A stretch of 64,000 nt of DNA from a bacterium (GCA_037143175.1 JBAWZF010000009.1:1959-65958); one strand, 5' to 3'; counted from the stretch's first letter, positions 26,846 through 49,003 are shown. Made by a program: numbers and translations. Notes: generated by a model from the letters alone, not told the origin.

Positions 26846-28117
26846 TTACCGGCTGACATCATGACACGTTGATGTGGATGTGGCGGAGTGATCCAGCAGG
26901 AACGCCAGCGCAAACATAATCGTCAACGGTATCCCGAGTCCACGAACGAGCAGCGGGTGCCAGATTCCGCATAAGGCGAACGACAGGATGGAGCCCAGAA
27001 GACCTAGGGCCAGTCCCCGGTCGCGAGGATAGGCGGGGGTGAAGAACTGACGGCTCGCCATGATCCCGAATGTAAGTAACATGCCAAGGAATGCGGCCAA
27101 CCCGGGCAGGCCGGTGGATGAGGCGAACACCAGGTAAAGATTCTCCGAGTCGTGTTCCACAACGCCGGTGGGACGGGGTAGAATGCCAAAATACCCGCCA
27201 ATGTTGTCCTGGTAATTACCAATACCAACTCCGAGCCAGGGATGTTCGGATAGCATTACCATCGCAGCTTGCCATTCACTGTAGCGCAGCGAGACCTCAT
27301 TGTTATCGTTGAATAGGCGGATGGATTGATCCAACACCACATCATTATGGCGTGGAAGGCGTGGAAAAATCAGTATCATGATTACGATGAAGAGGGTTGA
27401 GAAGGTGATGAATGCCGGTTTGCCTCGCATGGCGCACAATACGGCTAGGGTCAGGGTGATCGCTATCAACGCCCCGCCGGATAGGGTGATCAGCAGGGCG
27501 AGAGTGACCATTGTCAGCATCCAGCCCCGTCGCCAGATAGAAGTCTCATAGAGGGCGATGCCGCACATGAACGGAACCACGAGCGCCAGGTATCCGCCGA
27601 ACACATTACGGTTCCCGAAGGAGGCACAGACCTTGAAGTCTGTGATGCCGGGAAGCAGATACTGGACGACTCCCAGAAGGATTACCGCCGAGGCGACTAT
27701 CAGAAAGATATCCGTCACCCGGCGCAGACGCTGGCGATCCGGAATGTTCACAAAGAGCATAAAAGCGGCGACGAAATACTCGATCAGTTGGAGGATGTCC
27801 TTGACGCCTTTCATCGGGTGGATGGCGCGACTGACCGATAACGCGGCGATCAGAATGAACAGGACAACCATTAAGGGTGGACAACGCGATGCAGGAGAGT
27901 TCGCGCTGTTCATGGTTGCGTCAGTCTCCGGTAACCGTCTTTGAATCGCGTTTCCTAATATCCACAAACCGAACACAAGCCACACCAGGGGATCCACTAC
28001 GGAAACGTAAGTGTTCTTTGCAAGTTGGACGCCGTATTGGGTTGGCGACACTACAACGATAGTCAGCATTCCGATCCAGACCAGACGCGGAATAATTTTG
28101 GCTAACAGACTTGTCAC
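26846..28117 (-). CDS. O-antigen ligase/polymerase-like (Wzy_C-type) polytopic membrane protein
   Basis: 423-aa ORF, mostly hydrophobic (10 or more TM helices). Loop RYSEWQAAMVMLSEHPWLGVGIGNYQ resembles the Wzy_C signature. ATGA overlap with the upstream gene. Confidence 0.7.
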   Translation of the reverse strand: MTSLLAKIIPRLVWIGMLTIVVVSPTQYGVQLAKNTYVSVVDPLVWLVFGLWILGNAIQRRLPETDATMNSANSPASRCPPLMVVLFILIAALSVSRAIHPMKGVKDILQLIEYFVAAFMLFVNIPDRQRLRRVTDIFLIVASAVILLGVVQYLLPGITDFKVCASFGNRNVFGGYLALVVPFMCGIALYETSIWRRGWMLTMVTLALLITLSGGALIAITLTLAVLCAMRGKPAFITFSTLFIVIMILIFPRLPRHNDVVLDQSIRLFNDNNEVSLRYSEWQAAMVMLSEHPWLGVGIGNYQDNIGGYFGILPRPTGVVEHDSENLYLVFASSTGLPGLAAFLGMLLTFGIMASRQFFTPAYPRDRGLALGLLGSILSFALCGIWHPLLVRGLGIPLTIMFALAFLLDHSATSTSTCHDVSR

Positions 28118-28665: not shown

Positions 28666-28677
28666 AGTGAACTCCTT

Positions 28678-29823
28678 TCAAAGCCTTCCCTCATACACCG
28701 ACGAGAGAAGTTCGATCATATCCTCGAGACGGCACCGGTGCCGGAGGGACTCGCGTGCACGGTTACCCATAGTGGACCGTAACTTCCCGTTTTCAAGCAA
28801 TTTCAGCATGGCGTCAGCCAAGGCGGTGGAATCCTCAGAGAAGACGAGAAACCCGTTGTCACCGTTTTTTATCACATCCGCCATCCCTGCCACACTGGAA
28901 GCAATAACTGGTTTTCCTGCCGCCATGGCTTCCAGCAAAGTGTAAGGCAATCCCTCCCACAGCGACGGCAGAACCACGACGTCGAAGAGAGGTACAAGAT
29001 CGGGGACATCCTCACGTGCGCCGAGGAGGATGAATCGTTCCTGTAGACCAGCCGCCGCGATGTTGCGCTCAATGCGCTCTTTTAGTTCTCCAGCGCCAAC
29101 CAAAATAAAACGCACATCAGGCAGACGGGCCGCTACCTGCTGCGCGGCAGCGACAAAATGAACATGTCCTTTCTGGAGTGTAAATCGGCCAACCATGCCG
29201 GCCACCAGGCATCCGGTGCCGATCCCCAGTTCGCGTTGCCGCCGATCCCGTTCCTCGACGTTGGGTGGCGGCGAAGCATCGATGCCGTTCTCAATAACCA
29301 CCACGTGGGCTGGATTTGTCAATTGTTGGGCGGTAACTCGCTGGCTGGGACAGACGCATATAATACGGTCTGTGAAGTGGGCGGCGAACCGTTCCAGGTG
29401 AAAGTAAACGAACCGGACCGGCCTGGACGACTTCATTTGGAAAGGGAAGGTGTGTGGAGTATGGATAATGCGCGGAACACCTGTCAGTCGGGCGGCGAGA
29501 CGACCGAGGAATCCCGCCTTTGAGCTGTGCGTGTGAACGACATCGAATCGCGTGTGTCGCATCAAACGAATGAGGCGCAGCAGGGCCAGTAGATCGCTGA
29601 AAGGAGTGATTGCGCGTCGCATGGGAATCAGATGAACCGTGATGCCTTTGGACTTCATGATGGCAATATCATTGAAAAAGGCTGGATCGCGCCGTGCTGA
29701 ACAGGCCGCCGTGACTTGAAAGCGGGAGGGATCCAGAGAGGTCACAACGTCCATCAGGTGGCGCCGGGTTCCCCCGGTGGTGGCCTCCAGTATTTCCAGC
29801 ACTTGACACTTGACACCTGACAC
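28678..29823 (-). CDS. Glycosyltransferase family 4
   Basis: N-terminal TTGGTRRHLMDV. C-terminal VVLPSLWEGLPYTLLEAMAAGKPVIAS (E-x7-E region). Confidence 0.85.
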   Translation of the reverse strand: MSGVKCQVLEILEATTGGTRRHLMDVVTSLDPSRFQVTAACSARRDPAFFNDIAIMKSKGITVHLIPMRRAITPFSDLLALLRLIRLMRHTRFDVVHTHSSKAGFLGRLAARLTGVPRIIHTPHTFPFQMKSSRPVRFVYFHLERFAAHFTDRIICVCPSQRVTAQQLTNPAHVVVIENGIDASPPPNVEERDRRQRELGIGTGCLVAGMVGRFTLQKGHVHFVAAAQQVAARLPDVRFILVGAGELKERIERNIAAAGLQERFILLGAREDVPDLVPLFDVVVLPSLWEGLPYTLLEAMAAGKPVIASSVAGMADVIKNGDNGFLVFSEDSTALADAMLKLLENGKLRSTMGNRARESLRHRCRLEDMIELLSSVYEGRL

Positions 29824-29826
29824 GAA

Positions 29827-31398
29827 TCACCTCCGTCTGACGAAGCTCCACATGGCGTGGACTTCAGGCATCCGCAGGGCAATCACTGCTCCCGCAAAAG
29901 CCAGAATCCCAGCCGTTGAGGCGATGCCGATTCTCGCGGCGATAAGTCCGGAGGCCATCCATCTTGTACCGCCTGCGACAGGAGGCAGGCCGTGTAGCAA
30001 TCCGTTATGGACGGCTTGGACAACGATGGCCATGCTGGCGGCGGCCAGCAGCAGTCGCAGTCCGAATACGATGTTCTCACCCAGGCGTAGATCACCAAGC
30101 TTGGGTTTTAGCAGGAGGTAGAGTACCAACACTTTCGCGGTTTTGCTGATCAACGTCGCCAGGGCAATACTGCGATGCTGCATGCTGTCATGCAACGCGA
30201 CGACAATGCCAACATGCAGGATTACGCAGACGACTCCCACGATGGCTGGGGAGAGGGTGTCCTGGGCCGAGAAATAGAACCGCATCAGAATAATTTCAAG
30301 GGCGAGTGAAGTCAGGGCGGCTGCGAAAAACAGCAGTGGCCCTGCGGTGAGCAGAACGGAGTCCATGCCGAACTTGCCGCGTTCGAAAACAAGCTGAACC
30401 ACAGGCACCCGCAGGACCATCAGCGTCACTGAAATAGGAACGAGAATCAGAGCCATGGTGCGCAACGCACCCATCACAGCATCGGTGGTCTTGCGGCGGT
30501 CTCCACCAACGTTGAGGTCGGAGAAGAACGGATAGATCACCACGCCCACAGCGAACGGGATCAGGTTGATGAGAGTATCCGTCAAGCCCTTGGCATAGCC
30601 CAGGCTGGAAGCGAAGCCAGGGCCCATGCCTGAGGCAAAACGGTAATCGATCATGGTGCGGGCCTGTGCAATCAGGATGGATGCCAGTGTGGGCGGTAGC
30701 AGCAAGGCGAACTTTTTAAGCAGAGGATCATGCCAATCCACCGTAAGGCGTAACAGTTTCAGTTTGGATCTCAGGCCGATGAGCAGGATCGCCAGACTGG
30801 CACCCATGCCGGCCACAACGCCCATGGCCAGGCCTTTGATCCCGAAAAATGGGGCCAGCGCTACCATGATGGTAATAACCATGATTTTGTTTCCAGCATC
30901 TGCAAAAGCCGGCAGTGCAAAACGCTTGTCGGCATTGAAAATCAGGGTGGCCAAGGCGAACAAAGCCATGAATAAGGCGGCCGGTAACATGATTCGGACG
31001 AGTGTGATGGCGAGGTTTGCCGTTTCTTCTGATTGGAACGAGGAGAGGCCATGCACCATCCAGGGAGCCAGCACGATTCCCAGAGCCACCGCCGCCGTCA
31101 TTACCACCGCCACGATGGCGACCACTGCGCCCGTAAAACGCCAGGCCGCCGACTCACCTCCGGACTCCTTACGTTCGATGAACAGGGGCAGAAAGGGGGC
31201 GAGTAGCTTGTGCGGGATGATCATGAATGTGAAGACGATACTACTGAAGGCGAACGTATAGGCGTCGGCGGCGGTTCCCGTGCCGAACTGTTGTGCGATT
31301 ACGACTTTCTGGATGAACCCGCTCAGTCTTGCCAAAAGCGCAAAGGCACTGATGATCAGAGTGCCCCGGATAACCTTGCTTCCGAAAGATGCTGTCAT
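29827..31398 (-). CDS. MurJ/MviN-family lipid-linked oligosaccharide flippase
   Basis: 523-aa polytopic ORF. N-terminus ARLSGFIQKVVIAQQFGTGTAADAYTFAF is typical of MurJ/MviN. Confidence 0.85.
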   Translation of the reverse strand: MTASFGSKVIRGTLIISAFALLARLSGFIQKVVIAQQFGTGTAADAYTFAFSSIVFTFMIIPHKLLAPFLPLFIERKESGGESAAWRFTGAVVAIVAVVMTAAVALGIVLAPWMVHGLSSFQSEETANLAITLVRIMLPAALFMALFALATLIFNADKRFALPAFADAGNKIMVITIMVALAPFFGIKGLAMGVVAGMGASLAILLIGLRSKLKLLRLTVDWHDPLLKKFALLLPPTLASILIAQARTMIDYRFASGMGPGFASSLGYAKGLTDTLINLIPFAVGVVIYPFFSDLNVGGDRRKTTDAVMGALRTMALILVPISVTLMVLRVPVVQLVFERGKFGMDSVLLTAGPLLFFAAALTSLALEIILMRFYFSAQDTLSPAIVGVVCVILHVGIVVALHDSMQHRSIALATLISKTAKVLVLYLLLKPKLGDLRLGENIVFGLRLLLAAASMAIVVQAVHNGLLHGLPPVAGGTRWMASGLIAARIGIASTAGILAFAGAVIALRMPEVHAMWSFVRRR

Positions 31399-32648
31399 AT
31401 CGTTTTCCGCATATTATTAAATAGCTCTGCCAATGGAGCTGCATTCCGGGCAATATCAAATCGTTCCCGTATGGTGGTGGTACCGAAAGTTGACAGTATC
31501 CGACACAATGATTCGCTTTTCAACAATTCTTCGATCATTTCCGCCAAGATCCGGGCATCACCTGGTGGGGCCAAAAGGCCGGTACGACCGTGGACGATTA
31601 CTTCCGGTATCCCGGCGACCGGAGTAGTGACCACGGGAATACCCGCTGCCAGAGACTCCAGGATGACATTTGGAAGGCTGTCCCGGTCGCCATCGGGTGC
31701 GATGATGCATGGGAGAGCAAATACATGGGCCTGTTTGAGCAGGGAGACAACTTCCTCTGTCGAACACTCGCCCAGCAGCTGAACCGTTTCAGCGAGTCCC
31801 AACCGGTTAATTGCGGATTCAAGATTACGGCGCTCGGAACCTTCGCCGACGATGAGGCATCGGAAGGCCAGGTGGCGGTCACGCAAGATTCGGCAGGCTT
31901 CGATCAGGATGACGAACCCTTTTTTTGGTTGCAAACGACCGACAGCCAGAATTAGAGGTGGGACAGGGCGTTCTGTTATTTGTCCGCCGTTGACTGGTGT
32001 CGGGGCTTCACTCGAAGAGAACTCGGACGGTGTTAAGCCGTGGTAGATCAGGTGGACCTTCTCTGGCGGCAACGGACCAGCCCGCCGGTTAAGTTCATCT
32101 AAGCCGTAACTGGTACATACGGACACAAATTTAGCCGCCTGCGCCTTCCGTGACAGGGCTGCACGTGACTGAAGATAAATGTCTCTGGCGTGGGCGCTGA
32201 AACTGAAACTTATATTCAGCAGAGTAGCCATCATACGGGCTACATCTGTGGGCATATAGGCGAAATGCGCGTGAATATGTTCCACGCCGAAGTGCCCGGC
32301 CCGGCGAGCAAAGATGGCGGCTACCGGGAGATTCCGAAGGCACTTCAACAGTTCAATCGGGTCATGCAGGGAAGCGGCCAGAGTTTGCAGCAGGGCGCGA
32401 AGTGTGCGGCGCGGATGCCGCAACATGAAATACCACTGAGCAGTGATCACGGCAGGTGATAAGAGCGACGGACGGTAATATACCAGATGCTTTGGGGTTA
32501 GGTTCCCGGCCTGGCGGCAGATGACGGCTGGGCGTCGCAGGGAGAAGATGATAATTTTGAATCCCTTTCTCCGGAGTTCATCAAGCTCTCTCTGGATGAA
32601 GGTCTCTGTCCGGGAAGGGAACGTTCCTAGCACATAAGCGAGTTTCAT
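31395..32648 (-). CDS. Glycosyltransferase family 4
   Basis: Start set at MKLAYVLGTFPS (ATG at 32648, 1 nt after the upstream stop). C-terminal FALPCIIAPDGDRDSLPNVILESLAAGIPVVTT. Confidence 0.8.
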   Translation of the reverse strand: MKLAYVLGTFPSRTETFIQRELDELRRKGFKIIIFSLRRPAVICRQAGNLTPKHLVYYRPSLLSPAVITAQWYFMLRHPRRTLRALLQTLAASLHDPIELLKCLRNLPVAAIFARRAGHFGVEHIHAHFAYMPTDVARMMATLLNISFSFSAHARDIYLQSRAALSRKAQAAKFVSVCTSYGLDELNRRAGPLPPEKVHLIYHGLTPSEFSSSEAPTPVNGGQITERPVPPLILAVGRLQPKKGFVILIEACRILRDRHLAFRCLIVGEGSERRNLESAINRLGLAETVQLLGECSTEEVVSLLKQAHVFALPCIIAPDGDRDSLPNVILESLAAGIPVVTTPVAGIPEVIVHGRTGLLAPPGDARILAEMIEELLKSESLCRILSTFGTTTIRERFDIARNAAPLAELFNNMRKTI

Positions 32649-32649
32649 G

Positions 32650-33807
32650 TCAGGCATGGCTGGCGGCCTCCTCATACACGACTTCTGTGTCCGCCGCAAC
32701 GTTGGCCCATGAGAATTTGCGGACATGGTTCAGGCCCCTCGCGATCAGGTCGGTTCTCACTTTGTCGTCAGTCAGTACCGTTTCCATGGCAGCGGCCAGT
32801 CGGTCGGTTGCGAGCGCGTCCGTGGTGATGGCTGCCGGTCCCGCAATCTCCGGCAGGGCGCCCCTGTCGGAGATAACCACAGGCGTTCCGCATGCCATGG
32901 CCTCAAGGGGGGGCAGGCCGAAGCCCTCATAAAGTGAAGGGAATACGAAAAGAGCGGCCATGTTGTATAGCAGTGGTAATTTATCAAAAGGAATAAAACC
33001 GGTAAAGATAACGTCCTGCTTCATATCCTGCTCACGAATAGCGCGTCTCACGTTGGCCTGATCCCATGATGGGACTCCGGCGATCACAAGTTGATGGGTG
33101 ATGGCCGGGTTCTGTCGCAGTAAGCGATAGGCTTTGATCAGGCGCGTCAGGTTTTTCTTGGGTTCCAGTCCGCCGACAAACAGTATGAAAAGCTCCGGCA
33201 AACGGTATTCCAAGCGCATACGACTGAAGGCATCTTCGCCCAGCAGGATACGGAATTCAGGGCGCACACCGAGCGGTATGACGCGCACTTTGTTCTCGGC
33301 GGCAGGAAAATATCGCAGCAGGTCGGTGCGAGTGGTTTCGGAGGGAACGATTATTCTTGTGGCCTTGCGGACAGAGGGAGGCACCAGCAGGCGGTAGTGA
33401 AGCCGGTTGCTGAGTGTGCAAAGCTCGGGATGGGACAACGCGATCAGATCGTAGAGGGTGATCACCACCGGGATCCGTGACAGAATTGGGGCCACATAGC
33501 CTGGCGCATGGAGTAGATCGAAACACTGGTTTATCAGAAACGATGGGAGAACCAACTGTTCCCACAAGATGCGGATGGGACGAAGGTTGACAGGCCAGCG
33601 GGTAGATAGGGTCGCCGTTGACCGGCGGGCGCTAAGCGGCCCGCCGAAGCCGTGTGGAGTAGCGCCCGGTTTGTCTACCACGGACTGCGTGAAGAGGGTG
33701 TAATCATACTTGCCGAAAGCGGCCAGGGCTTGCACCAGGTTCAGGATGGAGCCTTCCACGCCGGAGTGGCGGTGGCCCAGAAGCATTCCATCTATGGCTA
33801 TGCGCAT
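32650..33807 (-). CDS. Glycosyltransferase family 4
   Basis: MRIAIDG...HSGVEGSILNL N-terminus; FVFPSLYEGFGLPPLEAMACGTPVVIS. Confidence 0.85.
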   Translation of the reverse strand: MRIAIDGMLLGHRHSGVEGSILNLVQALAAFGKYDYTLFTQSVVDKPGATPHGFGGPLSARRSTATLSTRWPVNLRPIRILWEQLVLPSFLINQCFDLLHAPGYVAPILSRIPVVITLYDLIALSHPELCTLSNRLHYRLLVPPSVRKATRIIVPSETTRTDLLRYFPAAENKVRVIPLGVRPEFRILLGEDAFSRMRLEYRLPELFILFVGGLEPKKNLTRLIKAYRLLRQNPAITHQLVIAGVPSWDQANVRRAIREQDMKQDVIFTGFIPFDKLPLLYNMAALFVFPSLYEGFGLPPLEAMACGTPVVISDRGALPEIAGPAAITTDALATDRLAAAMETVLTDDKVRTDLIARGLNHVRKFSWANVAADTEVVYEEAASHA

Positions 33808-35000
33808 GGTGTGCTCCTGTCAGAGAGAAGTTCGTCATAGATCGCCTCTATCTCCATGATTCTTTTCCTGACGTTAAAGTCTTGTTCAACACGTTGCCGC
33901 CCGGCTGCACTGAGTTGTTCTGCCAACAGCGGATTGTGGATCAGGCGAAGTGCCTCCCCAGCCAGATCCTCCGCCCGATCGCTTGCGGCTAGAAGTCCGT
34001 CAATGCCATGACGAATTATTTCGGCAGGGCCACAGGCATTCACCGCCACCACGGGTTTACCCCTGGCCATGGCTTCCAGTATGACCCGACCCAGTGGCTC
34101 TCGCACAGCGGGGTGGATCAGGATATCTATTGACTCCAGCAGCGGGGTCACATCCTGGAGGTGTCCCGTGAAAAGCAGGCGGTTCTTAAGACCCAGTTGC
34201 GCGATTTTGGATTCAAGCGTCGTCCGATAACCGCGATGTTCGTCGAAGAGATCGTCGCCAACGATTACAAACCGGGCGTCGGGCAGGATCGCGGCCAGCC
34301 GGACGGCTGTTTCAATAAAGGCGCCATGGTTTTTCCATGGCACCAACTGGGCTATCATGCCAAATACCGGCCCCTTGTGAAGCAGGCGTTCAGTCTGTGG
34401 TCCCACTGGTTCGTCCGGAAGACTGTTCTGCGATTTGCCGTGGGGTGCATTCAGGGTGGTATCGATGCCGTTATAAATGGTTCGCAGTTTATTTGGCGGG
34501 TGAATGCACGGTGAAACATGACGGTGAACGCAATCAGAAATGGCAATGGTGCGGGACGAGAAGCGGTTCAGCCAGGGTCCCAGTAAGCCTAAAGTCACCA
34601 TGTCACGAGTATGCCAGATGCAGGGAACCCCGGACAGTCGTGCCGCCGGGCCTGCGTAGATCTGTGCGGTATTGCTGTTGGCATGAATGAGGGCAATCCG
34701 TTCCCGGCGAATCAGTCGTGTCAACTGCACGGTAACCTTGAGGATATTCAACAGGCTGACAGCGAGGCACCAGGGATTCGTGGTTTTGCAGATCCTGCGC
34801 AAGGGGAGGGGCAGACATCTCGCACCGCACTGCCGGAGCGATTCGGTTAACTCGCCGCCGGGGGGGAGCGCGACGATCGGATCAAACCTGTTCCTGTCAA
34901 TATGCCGCAACATGTCCAGAAGGCTGCGCTCCGCGCCGCTGATGCGTGAGACATGGTTGACGAAGAGAATACGCGCCGGTTTCACCGGGACACCATCCAC
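33798..35000 (-). CDS. Glycosyltransferase family 4
   Basis: ILFVNHVSRISGAERSLLDML N-terminus; LIHPAVREPLGRVILEAMARGKPVVAV. Confidence 0.85.
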   Translation of the reverse strand: MDGVPVKPARILFVNHVSRISGAERSLLDMLRHIDRNRFDPIVALPPGGELTESLRQCGARCLPLPLRRICKTTNPWCLAVSLLNILKVTVQLTRLIRRERIALIHANSNTAQIYAGPAARLSGVPCIWHTRDMVTLGLLGPWLNRFSSRTIAISDCVHRHVSPCIHPPNKLRTIYNGIDTTLNAPHGKSQNSLPDEPVGPQTERLLHKGPVFGMIAQLVPWKNHGAFIETAVRLAAILPDARFVIVGDDLFDEHRGYRTTLESKIAQLGLKNRLLFTGHLQDVTPLLESIDILIHPAVREPLGRVILEAMARGKPVVAVNACGPAEIIRHGIDGLLAASDRAEDLAGEALRLIHNPLLAEQLSAAGRQRVEQDFNVRKRIMEIEAIYDELLSDRSTPCA

Positions 35001-35803: not shown

Positions 35804-35811
35804 GGAATGTG

Positions 35812-36639: not shown

Positions 36640-36896
36640 TCGGCAGTCATTTTGCTGCCTACAAACGCGGCCAGAGCGGCGACAGTTGCGAAATGTTTAA
36701 TGCTGAACTCCTCGTCGGGGATGACGATGCCAAATTCTTCTTCAATGCCTACCACCAATTCGAGCAGGCTCACCGAGTCCACTCCATAGTCGTCCATGAG
36801 CGATTTGTTGTCTTCAATCGCTTCTGGGGCGATTTTGAGAAAAAGCCTTGATGCGATCATGCGTTTCAGCCGGTCTTCAATGTTTTCTTCAGTCAT
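36636..36896 (-). CDS. Acyl carrier protein
   Basis: 86-aa acidic ORF with phosphopantetheine attachment motif DDYGVDSVSLLELV. ATGA overlap with the downstream hydrolase. Confidence 0.85.
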   Translation of the reverse strand: MTEENIEDRLKRMIASRLFLKIAPEAIEDNKSLMDDYGVDSVSLLELVVGIEEEFGIVIPDEEFSIKHFATVAALAAFVGSKMTAE

Positions 36897-36997
36897 AGTA
36901 ATACTCCTAAAGGAAGTCTCGCACGTTGTGGCGGCACTTTCAATACTAACGGTTGATGCGTAAGTATTCAGGTCATCCCGGTGCGCGGTATTGCCTG

Positions 36998-42035: not shown

Positions 42036-42775
42036 ATGTGCAGCCCTCCATCCACACACAGAACTTGGCCGGTGATGTAGTGCGCTTCGTCTGAGGCGAG
42101 GAAGGCGACGACACGGGCGACTTCATCGGGTTGACCGAAGCGACCCTGGGGAATGCGCTCCAGTTGCTTCGTTCGGCGTGTTGCCGACATGCCGGCAATC
42201 AGGTCTGTTTCGATAATACCGGGGGACACGGCGTTAACCGTGATGCCAGAGGGAGCGAATTCCCGCGCCACGGATTTTGTCAACCCGATCAGGCCGGCCT
42301 TGGCTGATGCATAATTGGCGCGCATCATGTCGCCCATCAGTCCGGCGTCAGAGGAGATGTTGATGATGCGTCCGGACTTCTGCCGGATCATCTCGCGGCC
42401 CACCGCCTTGATGCAGTGATAGGCCCCTTTCAAATCAACGTCCAGCACGTCGTTCCACTCCTCGTCCTTCATGAAGGTGACGTAGTTATCGCGGATAATT
42501 CCCGCGTTATTTACCAGGATATCCACCCGTCCCAGTGCTTGCTTTGTCTGTTCAATCATAGCTTTGACCTGATCCAGATGACGCACATCAGCCTTGAAGG
42601 GAAGGGCCTGTTGGCCAAAACCGCGGATAAGGACGGCGACTTCCTCGGCGGCCGCCGCCTGATTAACGTAGTTCACCACCACATGGACGCCTTCGGTTCC
42701 CAGTGCCAATGCCACGGCCCGGCCAATACCACGCGCACCACCGGTTACAATGGCCACTTTACCTTTTAGTTTCAT
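42032..42775 (-). CDS. 3-oxoacyl-ACP reductase (FabG-like SDR)
   Basis: VTGGARGIGRAVALAL, NNAGI and catalytic YASAKAG (YxxxK); 247 aa. Confidence 0.9.
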   Translation of the reverse strand: MKLKGKVAIVTGGARGIGRAVALALGTEGVHVVVNYVNQAAAAEEVAVLIRGFGQQALPFKADVRHLDQVKAMIEQTKQALGRVDILVNNAGIIRDNYVTFMKDEEWNDVLDVDLKGAYHCIKAVGREMIRQKSGRIINISSDAGLMGDMMRANYASAKAGLIGLTKSVAREFAPSGITVNAVSPGIIETDLIAGMSATRRTKQLERIPQGRFGQPDEVARVVAFLASDEAHYITGQVLCVDGGLHI

Positions 42776-42788
42776 GAGATGTTTTGGG

Positions 42789-43274
42789 TTACTTCTTCTC
42801 CATCAGGTATTTGTTCAGCACGTTTTCAGTGATTACCTCCACCTTGTACTTAGCCTGCACCAGTGCGAGATCCGTTCCGTGTTCACGGGCGAGTCGGCGT
42901 GCGGCGGGAGTGGCCCGGAGTGCGCCGGTCACGGCTCCGGCTTGTTTGCCTTTTTCCAAGGAAACGTTTTGAACCTTCCGTGTTAGCGTCTCCATCAGAC
43001 GGCGGTTAGAGGCGCTCACATCAGGCAAACTGTCGATCGTGTCTCCGATAAGGGCGACAACGTATCCTGCCGGGAGACTACTCTTCACTTCGGCCAGTGT
43101 TGCAAGCAACACTCCCGAGCGTGGTGCTTCCAACTCGAATGCCACCTTACTAGTGGACAGTTCGATCAGCGGATCTCCCTTATTGACGTACTCTCCCTTT
43201 TTTTTCAGCCAGGCGGTGATTGCCTGTTCTTCGTCGTTTTCGGTCAGTTTTGGGATTTTGACTTTTGTAACCAT
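42789..43274 (-). CDS. Free-standing lipoyl(biotinyl)-domain plus peripheral-subunit-binding-domain protein (E2 without catalytic domain)
   Basis: 161-aa ORF. Lipoyl-domain pattern KIPKLTENDEEQAITAWLKKKGEYVNKGDPLIELSTSKVAFELEAPRSGVL, with SKV in place of DKA. PSBD pattern LRATPAARRLAREHGTDLALV...ITENVLNKYL. The ORF then stops 13 nt before fabG-like. Confidence 0.8.
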   Translation of the reverse strand: MVTKVKIPKLTENDEEQAITAWLKKKGEYVNKGDPLIELSTSKVAFELEAPRSGVLLATLAEVKSSLPAGYVVALIGDTIDSLPDVSASNRRLMETLTRKVQNVSLEKGKQAGAVTGALRATPAARRLAREHGTDLALVQAKYKVEVITENVLNKYLMEKK

Positions 43275-46200
43275 TATTTATTTTCCTGTTCTCGGCCGAA
43301 AATCACTACATGCAGCGGCATGGATAGATTGCCAGCTTTATCCCGTACGCGCAATGTCAGCCATCCGGTTTCTTTAACCGATGCGGGCAAGGAGTAGGGC
43401 GTCAGACTCATGCCGTTTGTCTGTAGTGTGTTTTCCCATTGGATTCCGGCGATACCACTCTCATCATAGGCGTCCATTTCTATCAGGTCAGTGGGACTCC
43501 ATGGGGCAAAGACAAATACGCTTTGCAGTTGCTGCCGGAAGCGTTTGTCATTGCCGTCAGAGATGAAGGTCAGGTTTTTTACTACAAACTGGTTCGTAGA
43601 TCCTGCCGGCAACTGGTTTTTGAGAAGTTTGCCCGCATCAATGATGAATGATTGCCAGGCATTTGAGGCCCAAGTCAAGGGTCGGGGAGGGGCCTGGAGA
43701 ATGGCGTCCGCTGGAATTTCAGACAGACTAAATTTAAACGTATTGGTCGTTTCAGTCTCCAGAATGATAGCGACGCGGGGATTTTCGTTAGAGATCAATA
43801 CGGGGTGTCGCAGTTGAAACGCGAGAAAGGGGTAACGCTGAACGTTCCATTTTGGGGAAAACACATGCGTCATGGCTCCGGTTGAAGTTCCGGATACCAG
43901 CGAAAGATAGGGAGCTTCGCCCAGTTGGCATTCCAAGGTTGTAGTCCCGCCGGCTAGTGAGGTAAAGGGAGGATTAGTTTCTGCCATTCTTGCGCTGACC
44001 GTTGTCCAGAATATGTTCGAGGGATAAGAGGCAGACAGCACTGTTGGGGGCGTATGATCGGCAGCGTAATTGATCCGGCGAGGGAATTCCAGGTCGGGCA
44101 AGACGTTCCCCGCACCATCCTTGATTTCCGACAGGATGATTTTAAAGGCTTGGCCGGAGTCCGCCTGATTCAATTGTTGGCGGAAAATAAGTGACCAGTT
44201 CAACGCGAGGATGTCGTAATTAGTTGAATGGCTTAGGGTTGAGCCCAGCGTGTGAGTGATGGGGACGATGGTATCGTTCCATTTGAGTTTAAGCGCTTCC
44301 ATATCCAGAGGGGCCTCGCCATCCGTCTTGAATTTTACGCACAGAGAGGAACCGTTGCCCATGGCGTTGGTGGCTGGTTCAAAGGTACCGGTAGCGGATG
44401 GAGGCGTTCGGTCTATCAAGAATGGGATCGATGTGACCGGCGAAACGGCGTCCCTGTAATTCGCGGCTTTGAGGAAAATGTGCGCCAAGCCATTTCTCAG
44501 GGATTTGATGTCAGGCATAGTCTGTTGATTGTTAGGGATGTCGCGCCAAATGAGATCCGCGCATTGGGCGGAATTCAGGGACGGGTAGTCCTCCGGGCCG
44601 TTTCGGAGTGCCATTTGAACCTTTGTGACACCCTCAAAATCAAAGTAGTGCGGGGTGAAGGCCAGTTGTTCGTCCTTTGCCACGGAGGGTCCCGCCATCA
44701 GGTCGTCCAAGCTGAGTTCCGTGTATAGGCCGGTTTGGTCAACACTGTTGACCGAGCCGAACCGGAGTCCGCTCGCGTTGAATACCCCCGGTTGGCAGGG
44801 CTTCTCGATCAATGCATCGGTGACTAGTCCCCACCAGGTGTGCCACTGGTTGTCCAAGATCAGGTTGCCGGCACCACGAACCCCGCGCGCCGGTCCGTCC
44901 GGTTCGCTCAGGCGGACGGGGCCAACCGACCCACAGTCGAGCGACACTCGGGCCATGGATGTTCCGCGATACCGGAACTGCACCACTGGATACCGGGCGA
45001 ACGGCAGGGGAGCCTCGAAATAGCTACTCAGGCGTTGCGCAGTGCCCTGATTATATGTGGTTAGGAAACTTTGTTGGACGGGGTCGCAATCGGATATCAG
45101 GGTGCGTTGAGAGGGTTGTCTACCGCAGACTTTACGCGATTCGAATGATTCAATCAGCGGGCTGATGCCATCCAATTTCAGGAGCATTGGGGGTGTGCGC
45201 TGCGTGGCGTCAGCCCATTTCAAGGCGAATACACAGGTGTTGGTACCATGGACAACTTTGACTATGAGATTCGAGACGGGTCCGGTGGCGGCGTCGCTCA
45301 CACGTGGCACAGAGGCCTCCAGAGTATTGGGTGGCAGAAATCGTGTGTAAGCACTGGTTGATGCAATGGTGACGGTTGCGCCGGCAAGGGCACGGTCGGG
45401 TGAACCGGATGTTGACCGGAATTCGATGGTGTCTGGTTGCTGTTTGCTCCATGCACATGAGAGAGGCTGTGTCGTTGCGGCATGGTGCGGGATGGAGGCG
45501 AAGTTTTTGATCGCGTAGCCTTCGCCAGGCCCGTTGCCTGTCAGCCCTTGTACGATGTAACCGGCTTGTAGGTTGCCCAATCCTTCAATCTTGACGAGGA
45601 CGTTGGAGTCGTTGATAGATGCGGCCCAGTCTGCAACAGGGATCCAAGCCGTTGCGGTCGTCCAGTTTCCGTTGGTGTGCCATGCAGTAATTCCATTGAT
45701 GGGGGCGCTTCCTGGCACAGCCGTTTGTCCTGTTAGTTGATACTTGCCCTTTGAAAAACTTTCACCCGATAATTGGTGGAAATAGAATCGTTCCGGTGTA
45801 TAGGTTCCCTGGGTGTTGCGGCGGCCGATGGAATAATACAGATTGAACTGACCCCGATCGGTTCGTTTGACGTCGAAACGCCAGCCTGCAAGACTGGAAT
45901 AGGGGACTGGGGGGAGTGTGCAGCGGGTCAAAAGGGAACCGCTGCCAAGAATGCTTGTTACCGCGAAATAGGGACTGGAGTTGGTTGGAGTCATCCAGTC
46001 GAGGCGAGCCTGTGAGACCGGGTCATCAACTTCCCACGAGTCCCGATCCATGGGGCCCGTTGTGCGGTCACTGTTTGAGGCGAGCGGTGTTGAGGGATGG
46101 TTGGTGGTCGCCGGGGTGGGGCCGGCAGGGGTGAGAATACTGCGTAGGGCTACCGGCTTGAAGGTGACGGGTCGCGGGGTGACTGATTCCGCGGCGATCT

Positions 46201-49003
46201 TGACTCGTGCCACCATGATGGAATTCATGAACGTCCAGACGCCCATGGAGCCTTCGCTGAGTGGCTCAGGATCGGTGGCGCTGAAGATCAGTTCGTTGTC
46301 GAAATAAAACTCAAGTTTCTTGCCGGTGCGACGGAACTTAATATAGTACCAGGCCCCATGAACATCGCGATTAGTACCTATCAGCGGGAGATGCACCTTG
46401 CGTTTGCCACCCTCCCTGACACGCGGGGCACAGTAAGCGTCGGACTGGGTCAACATTTCACCGTTACGATAAAGCTTGGTGTAGAGACGTGACAGGTCAT
46501 AATCCCAGCCGGAACAGGTAACGGTGTACCCTTGGCTCGGGGTTGTATCGCGATTCATGACCGTCAGGTTAAAATCCCCGGGGGTGCTCTCGTAGGCGTG
46601 GCGGGTGCCAGCGTACATTTCCACGCAGAAGTCACCACGGAACCGGTATTTGCTCCAGATTGCTGCCAGGGTATTGGAGGATTCTCCGTTCATGTGCGAC
46701 CAGCGCGGATCGCAGTTGAACCGGTTGATGATCTCCCAGCGGCCGCCGTTGCGAGTCCATTCGTGGAGTGACTCCTTAAAGAGGAAATCCTTTACGTTGT
46801 ACCGTTCCACCAGACTGGAGGCCAACTTTGCCGTGGAAAAGCCTTTGATCATAATGTGGCGCCCTTGTAATGGCGCGGGCAAGGAGTGTTCAAAGAGCAA
46901 CTCTTTTCCACTCGTCAGCCAGATCCATAGTCCCTCTGCGTGAATGGTGTAGCCAACGACATTATTGGTCGCCAAACCAACGAAGCCTGTGATGCGATTG
47001 GTGGGGATGGCGGCGACAGGGGCTATCGATGTCGTCAGTTCTGAGCCTTGTTTTATCGAAAGGATCTGATTCGTGACGGTAACCACCCATTCGCCGGTCG
47101 TGGCACCGTCCGCCACGCCTAAATGAACCGTGGAATTGTCGACCAGCGGCATATGCACTGACACGCGTCCGAAGACGTCGCCTTTATACCAGACGGTGCC
47201 ATTGGTCACATCGTTCCACTGGCCTTCGGGGGATGACCAGTGGCGCATGAAATTATCAGTAACGAAGATGGTGTTCTTTTCAAACTGATCCGTGTAAAGA
47301 TCGGACCGCTCGAAATTATACTCAGGATGGGCAATTTGCACTTTGTTGTCCGGCCCGACATAGAGCCCTGAGGCTCCTCCGACGGGTGTTGGAGTGTGAT
47401 GCACAAGAACCAGTTCCTTGTTCCGATAACACCGAAGTTCGTTTCCTGATGTGGCATCACACATGAGGTTGATGGTTTCAGGCGTATCCGCCGTCAAGGG
47501 GAACCGTGGCAGACTCAACTCCTTTAGAGTGGTGGCGTTGGTGGGGCTGACGGTTTCGAGTCGAAACGTCTCGACGGCGGCGGTGCGGCGGCAGGTAAAG
47601 CGCAGGTAAGGGTGATTACTGCTGACATAACCGGCAATGAGGCCGATGTTACAGGAAGCATCGAGAGATGTGAACTCTGTGGAGAAAACATGCGCTCCAT
47701 GAGAAGTGGCCCCGACAATCAACCATTGCGGAGCACTGGACCGGGGAGGTGAGAGAAAAGGGGTCGCCCGAGGCGCAAAGAGGCTGAAGAATCCGCGGCG
47801 GGGAAAGAATTGCCCGTTTTCGGCCACCGTGTGGCGATGGATGTCATTCAACCCGAGAAAGTCCAGATCGTGATTCGAGTGAGCGGTAACGTCGTCGAAA
47901 AGCAGCGGGACGTCCGAATCGGCGAACAGCCCGAAGCGCCCGCCCACCGGCAGTTCTGCGGGAATGTCTATGATCTTGGTTTTGTCGACAAAGCACTGTA
48001 TCCGATTCTGGAAGGTGCGAACCTTAAGCCTGACCCATTGCCCGTTCATGATTTCGGTGGTGGCAGCCGCCAGTTCGGTGCGTGAGGTGGCGTTGGAAAA
48101 ATCAGTGTTCCAGAGGCTCAAACGGACGGTATCGGAATCATCGCCTGGTTGAACGGTGAAGGCATGGTATCCCCCCGAGTCGGTGCAGTCGAACACCAGC
48201 CCTCCCTCGCCATAACCGATTTGCAAGGCTCCTTCAATTGTATAGGAGTCGTAGAAGTCATAGCCGGTTATCAGAACGGCATTGGTGCCGGAGCCCTGCA
48301 ACGAGTAGAAGTTGGGGCTCATGGAGGCGGTGGGCTTGCGTTTGGCTTTTTCGTTGGTTTTTTCGTTGGCTCTGGCATTAGACCTATCCTTGATTCTGCG
48401 AGGTTGGCCTGGAGTAAAGTCGTCCACCACGGAATGCAGGTCCCATATGCCAGATTGCACTTCCCATGCGGCCAGTTCATTTTCGTCGCCTTCGGACACT
48501 AGAAAATCATCGTGGAAAACGAAGTCGTCTGTCTTTTGGAAGCGGGGTTCCATCTTTAGTGTGGTGGGCAGAGTATCGGACGATTGGTAAACGATGGCGG
48601 GAGGGTGGAATGGTGCGGGCAACACGATGATCGGTCGGTCCCCGATGTAGATGCTCCAGGTTTCCTGCCTGAACTTGATTGTCACTTGGATGGACTCCCT
48701 GTTGCCGGTGGGAAATGTATCCAAATTGAACTGCGATACATCAATGGGAACCTGGGGATAACAATCTTTGGGTTCAAACTGAATAAAAGGCTTTTTGGGG
48801 TTCAGATTCAGGATTACAGAGTTAATGGAATTCGTGGGGGTCAGTCGGAGACGCAGTCCGTTGTCAGCATTCCAGCGGGCGGTTAGTGTCAGATTGCCAG
48901 AGGGATACATGACGCGGGCGCGTTCGTTCCATTCTTGTCGTTCTGCAGAACAGGACAGTAGATAAGCAAACAAAAACAGTGATATTAGTGCGAGTCTCTT
49001 CAT
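43274..49003 (-). CDS. Giant secreted (possibly lipoprotein) multi-domain protein with LamG/DUF1080-like jelly-rolls and Ig-like modules
   Basis: 1909-aa uninterrupted ORF. Signal peptide MKRLALISLFLFAYLLSCSA. Jelly-roll-like segments at about aa 165-375 and 735-937 (W..G.W...; NGQWVRLKVRTFQNRIQCFVD; GAWYYIKFRRTGKKLEFYFDNELIF). Ig-like segments begin D-x-TPP and end D-x-AGN. Its stop overlaps the next start (TAATG). Confidence 0.85.
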   Translation of the reverse strand: MKRLALISLFLFAYLLSCSAERQEWNERARVMYPSGNLTLTARWNADNGLRLRLTPTNSINSVILNLNPKKPFIQFEPKDCYPQVPIDVSQFNLDTFPTGNRESIQVTIKFRQETWSIYIGDRPIIVLPAPFHPPAIVYQSSDTLPTTLKMEPRFQKTDDFVFHDDFLVSEGDENELAAWEVQSGIWDLHSVVDDFTPGQPRRIKDRSNARANEKTNEKAKRKPTASMSPNFYSLQGSGTNAVLITGYDFYDSYTIEGALQIGYGEGGLVFDCTDSGGYHAFTVQPGDDSDTVRLSLWNTDFSNATSRTELAAATTEIMNGQWVRLKVRTFQNRIQCFVDKTKIIDIPAELPVGGRFGLFADSDVPLLFDDVTAHSNHDLDFLGLNDIHRHTVAENGQFFPRRGFFSLFAPRATPFLSPPRSSAPQWLIVGATSHGAHVFSTEFTSLDASCNIGLIAGYVSSNHPYLRFTCRRTAAVETFRLETVSPTNATTLKELSLPRFPLTADTPETINLMCDATSGNELRCYRNKELVLVHHTPTPVGGASGLYVGPDNKVQIAHPEYNFERSDLYTDQFEKNTIFVTDNFMRHWSSPEGQWNDVTNGTVWYKGDVFGRVSVHMPLVDNSTVHLGVADGATTGEWVVTVTNQILSIKQGSELTTSIAPVAAIPTNRITGFVGLATNNVVGYTIHAEGLWIWLTSGKELLFEHSLPAPLQGRHIMIKGFSTAKLASSLVERYNVKDFLFKESLHEWTRNGGRWEIINRFNCDPRWSHMNGESSNTLAAIWSKYRFRGDFCVEMYAGTRHAYESTPGDFNLTVMNRDTTPSQGYTVTCSGWDYDLSRLYTKLYRNGEMLTQSDAYCAPRVREGGKRKVHLPLIGTNRDVHGAWYYIKFRRTGKKLEFYFDNELIFSATDPEPLSEGSMGVWTFMNSIMVARVKIAAESVTPRPVTFKPVALRSILTPAGPTPATTNHPSTPLASNSDRTTGPMDRDSWEVDDPVSQARLDWMTPTNSSPYFAVTSILGSGSLLTRCTLPPVPYSSLAGWRFDVKRTDRGQFNLYYSIGRRNTQGTYTPERFYFHQLSGESFSKGKYQLTGQTAVPGSAPINGITAWHTNGNWTTATAWIPVADWAASINDSNVLVKIEGLGNLQAGYIVQGLTGNGPGEGYAIKNFASIPHHAATTQPLSCAWSKQQPDTIEFRSTSGSPDRALAGATVTIASTSAYTRFLPPNTLEASVPRVSDAATGPVSNLIVKVVHGTNTCVFALKWADATQRTPPMLLKLDGISPLIESFESRKVCGRQPSQRTLISDCDPVQQSFLTTYNQGTAQRLSSYFEAPLPFARYPVVQFRYRGTSMARVSLDCGSVGPVRLSEPDGPARGVRGAGNLILDNQWHTWWGLVTDALIEKPCQPGVFNASGLRFGSVNSVDQTGLYTELSLDDLMAGPSVAKDEQLAFTPHYFDFEGVTKVQMALRNGPEDYPSLNSAQCADLIWRDIPNNQQTMPDIKSLRNGLAHIFLKAANYRDAVSPVTSIPFLIDRTPPSATGTFEPATNAMGNGSSLCVKFKTDGEAPLDMEALKLKWNDTIVPITHTLGSTLSHSTNYDILALNWSLIFRQQLNQADSGQAFKIILSEIKDGAGNVLPDLEFPRRINYAADHTPPTVLSASYPSNIFWTTVSARMAETNPPFTSLAGGTTTLECQLGEAPYLSLVSGTSTGAMTHVFSPKWNVQRYPFLAFQLRHPVLISNENPRVAIILETETTNTFKFSLSEIPADAILQAPPRPLTWASNAWQSFIIDAGKLLKNQLPAGSTNQFVVKNLTFISDGNDKRFRQQLQSVFVFAPWSPTDLIEMDAYDESGIAGIQWENTLQTNGMSLTPYSLPASVKETGWLTLRVRDKAGNLSMPLHVVIFGREQENK

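Follow-up and report, generated by a model that had tools for sequence, protein, structure and literature searches.

Organization of the operon

The stretch of DNA analyzed here (hereafter the window) is 64 kb of a metagenomic contig, JBAWZF010000009.1 positions 1959-65958 of assembly GCA_037143175.1, whose host is a freshwater Kiritimatiellia bacterium; the whole analysis was carried out in silico. Between positions 49003 and 26846, the window contains 18 consecutive minus-strand open reading frames (ORFs), treated here as one operon, that join the genes of glycan assembly to a set of genes for acyl chemistry. Read from the first gene to the last, they encode a giant secreted protein, a lipoyl carrier, a ketoreductase (KR), a ketosynthase (KS) and its partner (KSp), the alpha and beta subunits of an E1 enzyme, a family 2 glycosyltransferase (GT2), an acyl carrier protein (ACP), two proteins of the alpha/beta-hydrolase fold (hyd2 and hyd1), three family 4 glycosyltransferases (GT4a to GT4c), a MurJ-family flippase, a fourth family 4 enzyme (GT4d), a small secreted protein, and a Wzy_C-family membrane protein (Table 1). 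As argued below, these genes may together assemble a surface glycoconjugate that carries a short acyl group built within the same pathway. The identical locus is present in several lake metagenomes.

Table 1. Features of the operon in gene order, with window coordinates and main database scores. PSBD, peripheral-subunit-binding domain; CLF, chain-length factor; PDH, pyruvate dehydrogenase; ThDP, thiamine diphosphate.
Feature	Position	Strand	Evidence
Promoter-like site TTGACC-17-TAAATT	49036..49064	-	~33 nt upstream of first gene
Giant secreted protein, 1909 aa, probably a lipoprotein	43274..49003	-	signal sequence with lipobox
Lipoyl + PSBD carrier, 161 aa	42789..43274	-	Biotin_lipoyl 46.5 bits, E3_binding 29.2 bits
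FabG-type 3-oxoacyl-ACP reductase (KR)	42032..42775	-	TIGR01830 294 bits; NF009466 266.6 bits
FabF-like KS, predicted active, TTG start	40845..42035	-	fabF 377 bits; AmcF 241 bits
KS partner (KSp), predicted catalytically dead; CLF-like, not KSQ; 344 aa	39814..40848	-	ketoacyl-synt N 65.8 bits
PDH-type E1 alpha, ThDP-binding	38850..39803	-	E1_dh 298.5 bits; TIGR03182 370 bits
PDH-type E1 beta, TTG start	37870..38853	-	NF006667 394.8 bits (cut-off 321); Transket_pyr + Transketolase_C
GT2 glycosyltransferase	36998..37870	-	Glycos_transf_2 79.5 bits
Only real intergenic gap, 101 nt	36897..36997	.	between GT2 and ACP
ACP, dedicated	36636..36896	-	PP-binding 50.7 bits
hyd2, alpha/beta-hydrolase fold, Arg at nucleophile position, TIGR03101-like	35812..36639	-	TIGR03101 135.4 bits
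hyd1, alpha/beta-hydrolase, Cys-His-Asp triad, TIGR03100-like, 273 aa	34982..35803	-	TIGR03100 101.6 bits
GT4a	33798..35000	-	Glycos_transf_1 118.5 bits; best NCBIfam TIGR03088 (XrtA-system glycosyltransferase) 123 bits
GT4b	32650..33807	-	Glycos_transf_1 120 bits
GT4c, EpsE/WcaL-like	31395..32657	-	Glycos_transf_1 126 bits; EpsE 194 bits; WcaL 112 bits
MurJ-family (MOP) flippase	29827..31398	-	Pfam MurJ 230 bits; TIGR01695 248 bits
GT4d	28678..29823	-	Glycos_transf_1 139 bits; TIGR03088 170 bits
Small secreted protein, 183 aa	28114..28665	-	signal peptide
Wzy_C / O-antigen-ligase-family membrane protein	26846..28117	-	Wzy_C 56.5 bits, cut-off 31.7

An initial annotation of this DNA, made from the sequence alone, had placed 18 minus-strand ORFs in this interval, and the ORF listing bears out every one of those placements. 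With the start codons implied by that annotation (KS TTG 42035, E1 alpha ATG 39803, and GT4c ATG 32657), the recomputed junction distances are, in gene order, -1, 13, -4, -4, 10, -4, -1, 101, -4, 8, -19, -10, -8, -4, 3, 12, and -4 nt. The tight packing that had been described is therefore real, as 16 of the 17 junctions do not exceed 13 nt, and the 101-nt interval was correctly identified as the sole real gap. The overlap strings quoted were also right with two exceptions, both given as ATGA: the overlap at 38850-53 reads TTGA and the one at 28114-17 reads GTGA. The 101-nt gap marks the border between the acyl-supply half of the operon and its ACP/glycan half. Pfam and NCBIfam scans agree with the domain calls of the initial annotation for all proteins except the 183-aa one, and a Pfam scan of the large ORFs (at least 150 aa) across the window likewise found none of the functions that had been listed as absent, namely a dehydratase, enoyl reductase, FabD, E2 catalytic domain, E3, AMP-ligase, priming transferase, or Wza/Wzc. 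No family match to an exosortase (EpsH/XrtA) was found among the same ORFs.

The KS pair, the E1 enzyme, and the lipoyl carrier

The active-site residues of the acyl-supply enzymes were compared across the related loci that are described below. The KS retains its Cys/His/His/Lys residues in 29/29 loci and the KR its Ser-Tyr-Lys triad in 26/26. The KR falls just below the cut-off of TIGR01830 (297.75) and passes that of NF009466 (222), and it also scores 244 bits against the acetoacetyl-CoA reductase model TIGR01829. E1 alpha keeps its GDG...NN ThDP motif and its loop His in 30/30 loci. The lysine of the lipoyl domain (T[SDE]K), which is predicted to be lipoylated, is invariant in 24/24 loci, and the PSBD motif RATPAARRLA is near-invariant. 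Because these catalytic residues are invariant across loci, the E1, KS, KR, and carrier look active, as far as sequence can indicate.

The KS partner is a different case. It is recognizable as a member of the KS family (overall score 141 bits), and across loci the position of the catalytic Cys is occupied by Thr, Val, Leu, Ile, Asn, or Ala, never by Cys or Gln, with both His residues absent. Classical CLFs carry Gln at the Cys position for decarboxylative priming. The partner is thus probably catalytically dead and presumably cannot make its own primer by decarboxylating malonyl-ACP. A self-priming partner of the KSQ type was considered and ruled out, as Gln does not occur at this position in any locus. 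Because the partner never has Cys or Gln, the KS would need a separate source of primer.

The genes on either side of the KS pair offer a candidate for that source. The lipoyl carrier ends directly after its PSBD and has no E2 catalytic domain, and no 2-oxoacid_dh match was found anywhere in the window. Its best match in the Protein Data Bank (PDB) is the lipoyl + PSBD region of PDH E2, with protein X also among the closest. E1 alpha is nearest to human PDH E1 alpha (216 bits), above the matches to the branched-chain (BCKDH) enzymes. The initial annotation had labeled this E1 module as acetoin-type, for which we were unable to find specific support; E1 alpha, E1 beta, and the lipoyl-PSBD carrier all match PDH types best, and PDH-type appears to be the better label. 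The lack of an E2 core and the cluster-specific nature of the genes ruled out an ordinary housekeeping PDH.

The ACP and its two hydrolase-fold neighbors

The best NCBIfam match of the ACP is the cispentacin ACP AmcB (72.4 bits, below the cut-off of 80), and the serine of its DSV motif is invariant in 15 loci. The ACP gene overlaps the start of the hyd2 gene by 4 nt. Both hydrolase-fold proteins find their best family among the hydrolases of exosortase-A loci, hyd2 in TIGR03101 (E = 2e-39) and hyd1 in TIGR03100 (E = 4e-29), in each case below the curated cut-off (202.75 and 168.45, respectively), and relatives of hyd2 carry the JGI name 'exosortase A-associated hydrolase 2'. The link that had been drawn to the exosortase-A hydrolase/ACP cassette is therefore real at the family level.

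The two proteins differ in their predicted active sites. In alignments to PDB entries, the Cys of hyd1 (A-I-C-S-G) sits on the catalytic Ser of G-x-S-x-G esterases, and this Cys, within an elbow of the form A/G-x-C-S-G, is kept across loci together with the His (ANHSF) and Asp (NDP). In hyd2, by comparison, it is an Arg (G-L-R-L-G) that aligns with the catalytic Ser of the esterases; all loci keep the elbow G-[LV]-R-x-G, and the position of the triad His is occupied by the sequence PFW, with no His. An exhaustive HMMER search for the hyd1 family yielded 149 clusters (50% identity level) at E <= 1e-30. The G-x-C-S-G elbow occurs in about 130 of the best 150 representatives of the family, and about one third of those 150 are proteins of 530-670 aa with two hyd1-matching stretches, of which the C-terminal one matches better. 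We read these longer proteins as hyd2-hyd1 fusions; wherever the pattern search found an elbow in their N-terminal half, it was G-x-R-x-G. One of the related loci (L006) itself carries such a fusion. The Arg-hyd2/Cys-hyd1 features are also found in WS1, in Armatimonadota, in one unplaced metagenome-assembled genome (MAG), and in an exopolysaccharide (EPS) locus of Cupriavidus. A tblastn search of hyd1 against a plasmid collection gave no matches.

The initial annotation had assigned the two hydrolases to two separate steps, one moving the acyl group from the lipoyl carrier to the ACP and the other moving it from the ACP to the sugar. This fits poorly with an Arg and no His in hyd2, with the fusions, and with the occurrence of the ACP-hyd2-hyd1 series in loci without lipoyl or E1 alpha genes. 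For these reasons hyd2 and hyd1 look like one ACP-side unit, and separate catalytic steps for the two were rejected.

The Cupriavidus example places this unit in a familiar setting. On the Cupriavidus campinensis chromid NZ_CP043441.1 (our locus L075, a high-GC locus whose reading frames were chosen by the GC content of third codon positions), a fused hyd2-hyd1 (G-I-R-L-G and G-I-C-S-G) at 13818-15707 adjoins Wzc, a WcaJ-type priming transferase, a GT2, and ManC, which is a classical EPS locus. About 6 kb from the fusion (21334-24737) lie an ACP-like gene, an acyl-CoA-dehydrogenase-like gene, and an amino acid:[ACP] ligase (NF005479, 508 bits). The same delivery unit therefore seems to occur near a different carrier-loading enzyme.

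The features of hyd1 also bring to mind the polyhydroxybutyrate polymerase PhaC, which has a Cys-His-Asp triad in an alpha/beta-hydrolase fold as well. One could accordingly imagine an ACP-based analogue of polyhydroxybutyrate synthesis, with the KS acting as PhaA, the KR as PhaB, and hyd1 with hyd2 as PhaC/PhaE, that would either grow an oligo(3-hydroxyalkanoate) chain on the glycan or attach one to it. The family-wide triad of hyd1 in a lipase-box-like G-x-C-x-G elbow, its obligatory and often fused partner without a Ser/His triad, the match of the KR to TIGR01829, and the lack of a dehydratase or enoyl reductase, which would make the 3-hydroxy state the end point, are all in keeping with this idea. 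Yet hyd1 is only 273 aa long and is nearest to small S33/feruloyl-type esterases, no PhaC family is found among the Pfam and NCBIfam matches, and a Cys nucleophile fits a simple transthioesterification or acyl transfer equally well. We consider such a polymerase very unlikely.

Distribution of the cluster and its modular variants

To define the related loci, an alignment of the KS partner was compared to one genome per GTDB species, and 60 loci were returned. All 60 come from MAGs of the Planctomycetes-Verrucomicrobia-Chlamydiae (PVC) group, i.e., from Kiritimatiellia, Lentisphaerae/Victivallales, and MAGs labeled 'Verrucomicrobiota', and the KS partner signature KGPRFVKPxLFPH is accordingly PVC-specific. 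Gene content was determined by tblastn with the 18 window proteins against all loci and by gene calls of four further contigs (loci are designated below by L numbers). Locus L066 was too noisy to interpret.

More than 20 species-level PVC loci have an intact block of lipoyl carrier, KR, KS, KSp, E1 alpha, and E1 beta, and wherever the contig continues, this block is followed by GT2, ACP, hyd2, (hyd1), the GT4s, and MurJ. The full order, starting with the giant protein and running through the block, GT2, ACP, hyd2, hyd1, and the GT4s to MurJ, is kept in L006, L007, L011, L014, L029, L031, and others. Across the related loci, the lowest identities are about 35% (KS partner) and about 36% (giant protein). 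As such, the operon is a conserved unit: the initial annotation had allowed that its genes might be a chance juxtaposition, which non-conserved synteny would have revealed, and the synteny instead recurs in more than 20 species-level genomes.

The specific form of that possibility, in which housekeeping PDH and fatty-acid genes happen to lie beside an ordinary polysaccharide operon, was rejected on account of this synteny and retains next to no probability. It is true that each protein resembles a housekeeping family and that the MurJ-family flippase passes an equivalog cut-off. However, the order is kept across orders and phyla at 35-60% identity, which already contradicts chance, the families of the KS partner and the giant protein are specific to the cluster, and an E1 without an E2 core cannot serve as a PDH.

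Other loci contain parts of the system. L072 contains GT2, ACP, hyd2, hyd1, three GT4s, MurJ, a further GT4, Wzy_C, and a homologue of the 183-aa protein, and it lacks genes for E1, the lipoyl carrier, KS, and KR. This glycan series recurs in WS1 (L071) and Armatimonadota (L073), where only E1 beta and large secreted proteins precede it, and a gene for a lipoate-protein ligase/octanoyltransferase lies inside the WS1 cluster (L071:18083-18772; PF21948, 146.8 bits). Short-form loci of Kiritimatiellia (L027 and L074) end after GT2, ACP, hyd2, and one GT4. Because WS1, Armatimonadota, and other MAGs have the glycan half but neither KS nor lipoyl genes, the E1/lipoyl/KS/KR block appears to be a swappable acyl-supply module. 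Judging from these gene contents, the glycan/ACP/hydrolase core is probably older and more widespread than the acyl-supply half, and E1, lipoyl carrier, KS, and KR would be one of several interchangeable routes for charging the carrier.

The WS1 and Armatimonadota loci bear on a different role for E1, namely that of a ThDP carboligase that adds a C2 branch to a keto-sugar, as proposed for E1 pairs of the AviB1/AviB2 type that act in the biosynthesis of branched sugars, with KS, KR, and ACP making an unrelated acyl group. PDH-like E1 pairs do occur in deoxysugar pathways, and in these two loci E1 beta adjoins GT2 without KS, KR, or a detectable lipoyl gene. A carboligase, however, needs no lipoyl acceptor, whereas E1 alpha and E1 beta form an uninterrupted series with the lipoyl-PSBD carrier in more than 20 loci; the lysine and E1/E3-binding motif of this carrier are near-invariant, and the WS1 cluster has its lipoate ligase. 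We find this role highly improbable.

A second set of about 30 PVC loci (L035-L068) has a KS-KSp pair. One of these, L046 (6748-10993), encodes KS and KSp fused into a single 756-aa protein beside an SGNH/GxDLY esterase, a methyltransferase, an MBOAT protein, and a GT2, and has no E1 or lipoyl genes; such a sister cassette fits O-acylation of a glycan too.

Several neighbors of the related loci deserve mention in their own right. The short form is followed at L027:16568-20074 and L074:12137-15610 by genes for an NMT1-like binding protein and a sigma-54 activator with low-molecular-weight phosphotyrosine phosphatase and PAS domains, and this activator may be a regulator of the cluster. In L008, restriction and defense genes (Eco57I-type, AIPR, and SNF2/PLD) occupy the region where the giant, lipoyl, and KR genes would be (L008:1-8622), and between GT2 and ACP, at the junction where the window has its 101-nt gap, stand a C39 peptidase gene and a Type_ISP_C gene on the opposite strand (L008:14043-15076).

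Glycan assembly and export

GT2 lies directly upstream of ACP in Kiritimatiellia, WS1, Armatimonadota, and one unplaced MAG. The MOP flippase is found at the same position in L006, L008, L071, L072, and L073, and the Wzy_C protein has the same terminal position in L071 and L072. For the 183-aa secreted protein, the description 'CBM-like' (carbohydrate-binding module-like) of the initial annotation could not be confirmed: beyond its signal peptide, no Pfam or NCBIfam family was matched, and its sole PDB match is non-significant (E = 0.13). Its homologue in L072 (32% identity) is also beside Wzy_C. We were unable to find a priming phosphoglycosyl transferase, a chain-length regulator, or an outer-membrane exporter in the window or in the PVC, WS1, and Armatimonadota loci examined.

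The missing priming enzyme raises the possibility that the product is a glycolipid instead of an acylated polysaccharide. In such a pathway, KS, KSp, and KR would work with housekeeping FabZ and FabI to make a medium or long 3-hydroxyacyl-ACP, hyd2/hyd1 would release or condense it in the manner of RhlA or PhaG, GT2 and the GT4s would glycosylate the lipid, and the MurJ-like protein would flip it. Alpha/beta-hydrolase-fold enzymes that act on 3-hydroxyacyl-ACP are well established, RhlA and PhaG among them, and a glycolipid would also suit the lack of a priming phosphoglycosyl transferase from the operon and the related loci, the short-form loci that stop after GT2, ACP, hyd2, and one GT4, and the constant adjacency of GT2 to the ACP gene. 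On the other hand, priming transferases are often encoded outside glycan clusters (e.g., WecA in E. coli), the long form with its five glycosyltransferases, MOP flippase, and Wzy_C is a standard set for a lipid-linked oligosaccharide, and the EPS locus that holds the fused hyd2-hyd1 of Cupriavidus is of the classical undecaprenyl-phosphate kind, having both Wzc and a WcaJ-type transferase. Weighing these, we regard a glycolipid as a credible but minor possibility.

The giant secreted protein

The N-terminus of the giant protein, MKRLALISLFLFAYLLSC, is a signal sequence that includes a lipobox (LLSC); no further hydrophobic or transmembrane segment was found. Sequence searches against Pfam, NCBIfam, and PDB gave no family above threshold and nothing usable, and we therefore describe it from predicted structures. 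The AlphaFold2 model of residues 20-945 (mean confidence, pLDDT, 83.5) is a string of concanavalin-like jelly rolls matching neurexin LNS, laminin LG, galectin, and CBM66, and residues 980-1909 were modeled (AlphaFold, pLDDT 86) as a succession of Ig-like/CBM-like sandwiches matching the grappling-hook protein GhpA, a xanthanase CBM, SiiE, and the S-layer protein Sap. No catalytic fold is apparent in these models. The family comprises about 50 clusters, all of 1850-2060 aa and all annotated as hypothetical, and its gene is directly upstream of the lipoyl gene in 23 of the 25 loci in which a lipoyl gene was found. Based on the models, we read the giant protein as a surface scaffold resembling lectins and adhesins that would either bind or carry the glycan.

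If it carries the glycan, the operon could be a protein glycosylation system, in which the Wzy_C enzyme is a PglL-like O-oligosaccharyltransferase and the giant protein its main substrate, resulting in an acylated glycoprotein coat. The Wzy_C family does include PglL and PilO. The giant gene and the Wzy_C gene are the first and last of the operon and co-occur in long-form loci, and the giant protein is 17% Ser + Thr and combines adhesin-like with S-layer-like beta-sandwich domains. Against this, L072 has Wzy_C and the small periplasmic protein with no giant protein within the 10 kb flank on either side, the N-terminal half, being lectin-like, suits glycan binding no less than it suits a role as substrate, and no sequence feature separates ligase, polymerase, and oligosaccharyltransferase here. 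Glycosylation of the giant protein seems unlikely to us; it concerns the acceptor only and would be compatible with the model that is set out below.

Relationship to characterized systems

The initial annotation knew of no characterized system with this gene combination, and we too found no description of the cluster or of the combination in the literature. Nothing functional was found on the TIGR03100/TIGR03101 cassette, and none of these genes is mentioned in the Pontiella EPS paper. The closest named system is the XrtA/PEP-CTERM EPS locus, which shares with the window the TIGR03101- and TIGR03100-type hydrolases, an ACP beside the hydrolase pair, a Wzy_C-type protein, and glycosyltransferases of the TIGR03088 type (GT4a and GT4d). 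In contrast to these loci, the window has no exosortase, PEP-CTERM protein, AMP-ligase, or pyridoxal phosphate-dependent decarboxylase, the scores against its families all remain below the curated cut-offs, and acyl supply is by E1, lipoyl carrier, KS, and KR. The sole mention of the XrtA hydrolase/ACP cassette that we found only guesses at the role of the hydrolases (PMC3584217).

The acyl-supply genes have partial counterparts in natural-product biosynthesis. In the E1/lipoyl/ACP relays QncN/L/M and SclQ1-4, a C2 unit is loaded onto a dedicated ACP for a nonribosomal peptide (PMC6335953). Here too a ThDP-dependent E1 is expected to charge a lipoyl group and the ACP is a dedicated one. In those relays, however, the lipoyl domain is fused to an acyltransferase domain in a nonribosomal peptide synthetase context (PMC6335953), whereas in the window it belongs to a stand-alone lipoyl-PSBD protein that is encoded with a KS pair and a KR in a glycan operon. 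The KS/partner pair AmcF-AmcG of cispentacin biosynthesis performs a single C2 elongation (PMC10698177). Like this and other heterodimers of type II polyketide synthases, the operon combines an active-type KS and a Cys-less partner with a dedicated ACP (AmcB being its best match) and a FabG-like KR. Unlike AmcF, the KS is nearer to FabF (377 bits against 241 bits), the partner is FabF-derived and PVC-specific, the primer would come from E1 and the lipoyl carrier instead of an adenylating enzyme, and the product is presumably placed on a glycan. It also differs from classical type II polyketide synthases in having no KSQ partner and, in operon and window alike, no dehydratase, cyclase, thioesterase, malonyl transacylase, or enoyl reductase.

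Pyruvate and acetoin dehydrogenases share the heterotetramer-type E1 alpha/beta with its intact ThDP motif, as well as a lipoyl + PSBD protein nearest to PDH E2 and protein X. Because there is no E2 core, neither 2-oxoacid_dh nor the lipoyl-fused hydrolase of AcoC, the operon does not encode a 2-oxo acid dehydrogenase complex; in addition, no E3 lies in the window, and the genes are co-conserved within a KS/glycan operon. Similarly, the MOP-family flippase and Wzy_C membrane protein recall the Wzx/Wzy pathway, and the locus is not a complete Wzx/Wzy locus because it has no priming transferase or exporter.

As for the overall logic, glycopolymer loci in which a carrier protein bears a substituent that is attached later are known from Dlt D-alanylation and from the tetronate side chain of Vibrio cholerae O1 (rfbKLMNO). 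These loci also encode a small carrier protein inside a glycan locus; adenylating ligases load it, and MBOAT/DltD or other folds carry out the transfer. To our knowledge, neither a KS nor an E1 with a lipoyl carrier is used to build the substituent in any of these systems. In our reading, the operon decorates a glycopolymer by a comparable carrier-protein-dependent route, in which both the supply module and the candidate transferase are new.

A model for the operon

We propose that the operon, in three modules, assembles a surface glycoconjugate with a short (3R)-hydroxyacyl substituent that is built in situ on the dedicated ACP, and we put the probability of this at roughly 0.5. The gene content, the conservation, the modularity, and the states of the active sites are as described above; the reactions themselves, the kind of acyl group and its chain length, the acceptor that receives it, and what the giant protein does are all inferred from them.

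The PDH-type E1 would decarboxylate a small 2-oxo acid, most likely pyruvate, which is favored because E1 resembles the PDH type. E1 would then reductively acylate the lipoyl-lysine of the stand-alone carrier, which would be docked through its PSBD on E1 (and on E3). The resulting S-acyl-dihydrolipoyl arm may serve as the carrier of the starter unit and prime the active-site Cys of the FabF-type KS directly, with the KS held in a heterodimer with its dead partner. The initial annotation had instead envisaged a relay by a hydrolase; two observations lead us to favor direct priming of the KS, namely that an E2 catalytic domain is missing and that ACP-hyd2-hyd1 exists without lipoyl genes. The KS pair would then condense this primer once or a few times with malonyl-ACP, for whose loading a FabD would have to be borrowed, and the KR would reduce the product to a (3R)-hydroxyacyl-ACP, which would be 3-hydroxybutyryl-ACP after one round with an acetyl primer. 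A single elongation to a 3-hydroxybutyryl-type group is plausible, and the chain could be longer if FabZ and FabI take part.

In the remaining steps, hyd1 would take the acyl group from the ACP onto its Cys and pass it to a hydroxyl or amine of a sugar in the nascent lipid-linked glycan, with hyd2 as its non-catalytic docking subunit. GT2 and the four GT4s would build this glycan on a lipid carrier in the cytoplasm, and the MurJ-type flippase would export the unit. At the outer face, the Wzy_C protein would either polymerize the unit or ligate it to an acceptor, which may be lipid A-core, protein, or further polymer, and the giant lectin-array lipoprotein would bind, organize, or carry the product at the cell surface.

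Several points weigh against this model. We know of no precedent for priming of a KS directly by an acyl-lipoyl protein. KS/CLF pairs usually govern several rounds of elongation, and a chain far longer than proposed could result if housekeeping FabZ and FabI contributed. Missing from the window are an E3, a lipoate ligase, a phosphopantetheinyl transferase, a FabD, and a priming glycosyltransferase, and several required functions would therefore have to be borrowed from elsewhere in the genome. The model leaves unexplained the E1 beta genes of WS1 and Armatimonadota (L071:7825-8802 and L073:7041-8018), which have no adjoining E1 alpha. The flippase passes the equivalog cut-off of TIGR01695 (235.55), the model for the lipid II flippase, and could be a housekeeping protein. 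Finally, hyd1 was not found beside hyd2 in the short-form loci L019, L027, L028, and L074, and because of this hyd2 may have a role of its own.

A bolder version of the model makes two claims of novelty, and we advance it tentatively, as less probable than its alternatives taken together. In it, E1 and the free lipoyl-PSBD protein would be a CoA-independent loader of KS starter units that operates without an E2 domain, and hyd2/hyd1 would be a new class of acyl-ACP:glycan acyltransferase that puts a 3-hydroxyacyl group (or an oligomer of it) on a PVC surface glycan organized by the giant protein.

Should the model hold, it would provide the first testable function for the hydrolase-1/hydrolase-2/ACP cassette, which has long been annotated in exosortase-type and other polysaccharide loci without any chemistry. 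It would also mean a new way of priming a KS, by an acyl-lipoyl protein instead of an acyl-CoA or acyl-ACP and hence across a new interface between lipoyl and phosphopantetheinyl carriers, and a new family of Cys-dependent acyltransferases made of an alpha/beta-hydrolase fold and a partner without a Ser/His triad. The operon is a lineage-wide feature, probably of the envelope or matrix, of Kiritimatiellia and Lentisphaerae, bacteria that are abundant in lakes, sediments, and guts and of which very few have been cultured. With one glycan core joined to different carrier-loading modules across phyla, the loci amount to a natural experiment for dissecting the functions of the parts.

Genomic surroundings

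Neither promoter-like nor terminator-like sites are more numerous than expected by chance in the region; the promoter-like site ahead of the first gene is suggestive by its position only, and the two scans are neutral on whether the operon forms a single transcript. Rfam and tRNA scans of the window gave no matches. The flanks are ordinary chromosome, with a tyrosine recombinase, waaA, a PfkB kinase, and nuo genes on one side and phosphoglucomutase and sugar-metabolism genes on the other. The recombinase (Phage_integrase, 136.5 bits; window 49293-50465, plus strand) stands between the operon and waaA. The GC profile (26-48 kb) is at 0.55-0.59 in the operon and 0.48-0.54 in the flanks. With its adjoining recombinase and raised GC, the operon may be a genomic island. 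In L006 and L007, other genes stand upstream of the operon.

Elsewhere in the window, on the minus strand at 9793-15290, another GT4 and a 150-aa protein without a family adjoin a biotinyl subunit resembling those of oxaloacetate decarboxylase and pyruvate carboxylase. The same interval encodes the alpha and beta carboxyltransferase subunits of acetyl-CoA carboxylase, which could feed malonyl-CoA and are probably housekeeping. A distant KS match also led to an unrelated cassette at L070:7822-14125, which consists of a PilZ-methyltransferase, a KR, two KSs, an ACP, and an amine-oxidase-like flavoprotein.

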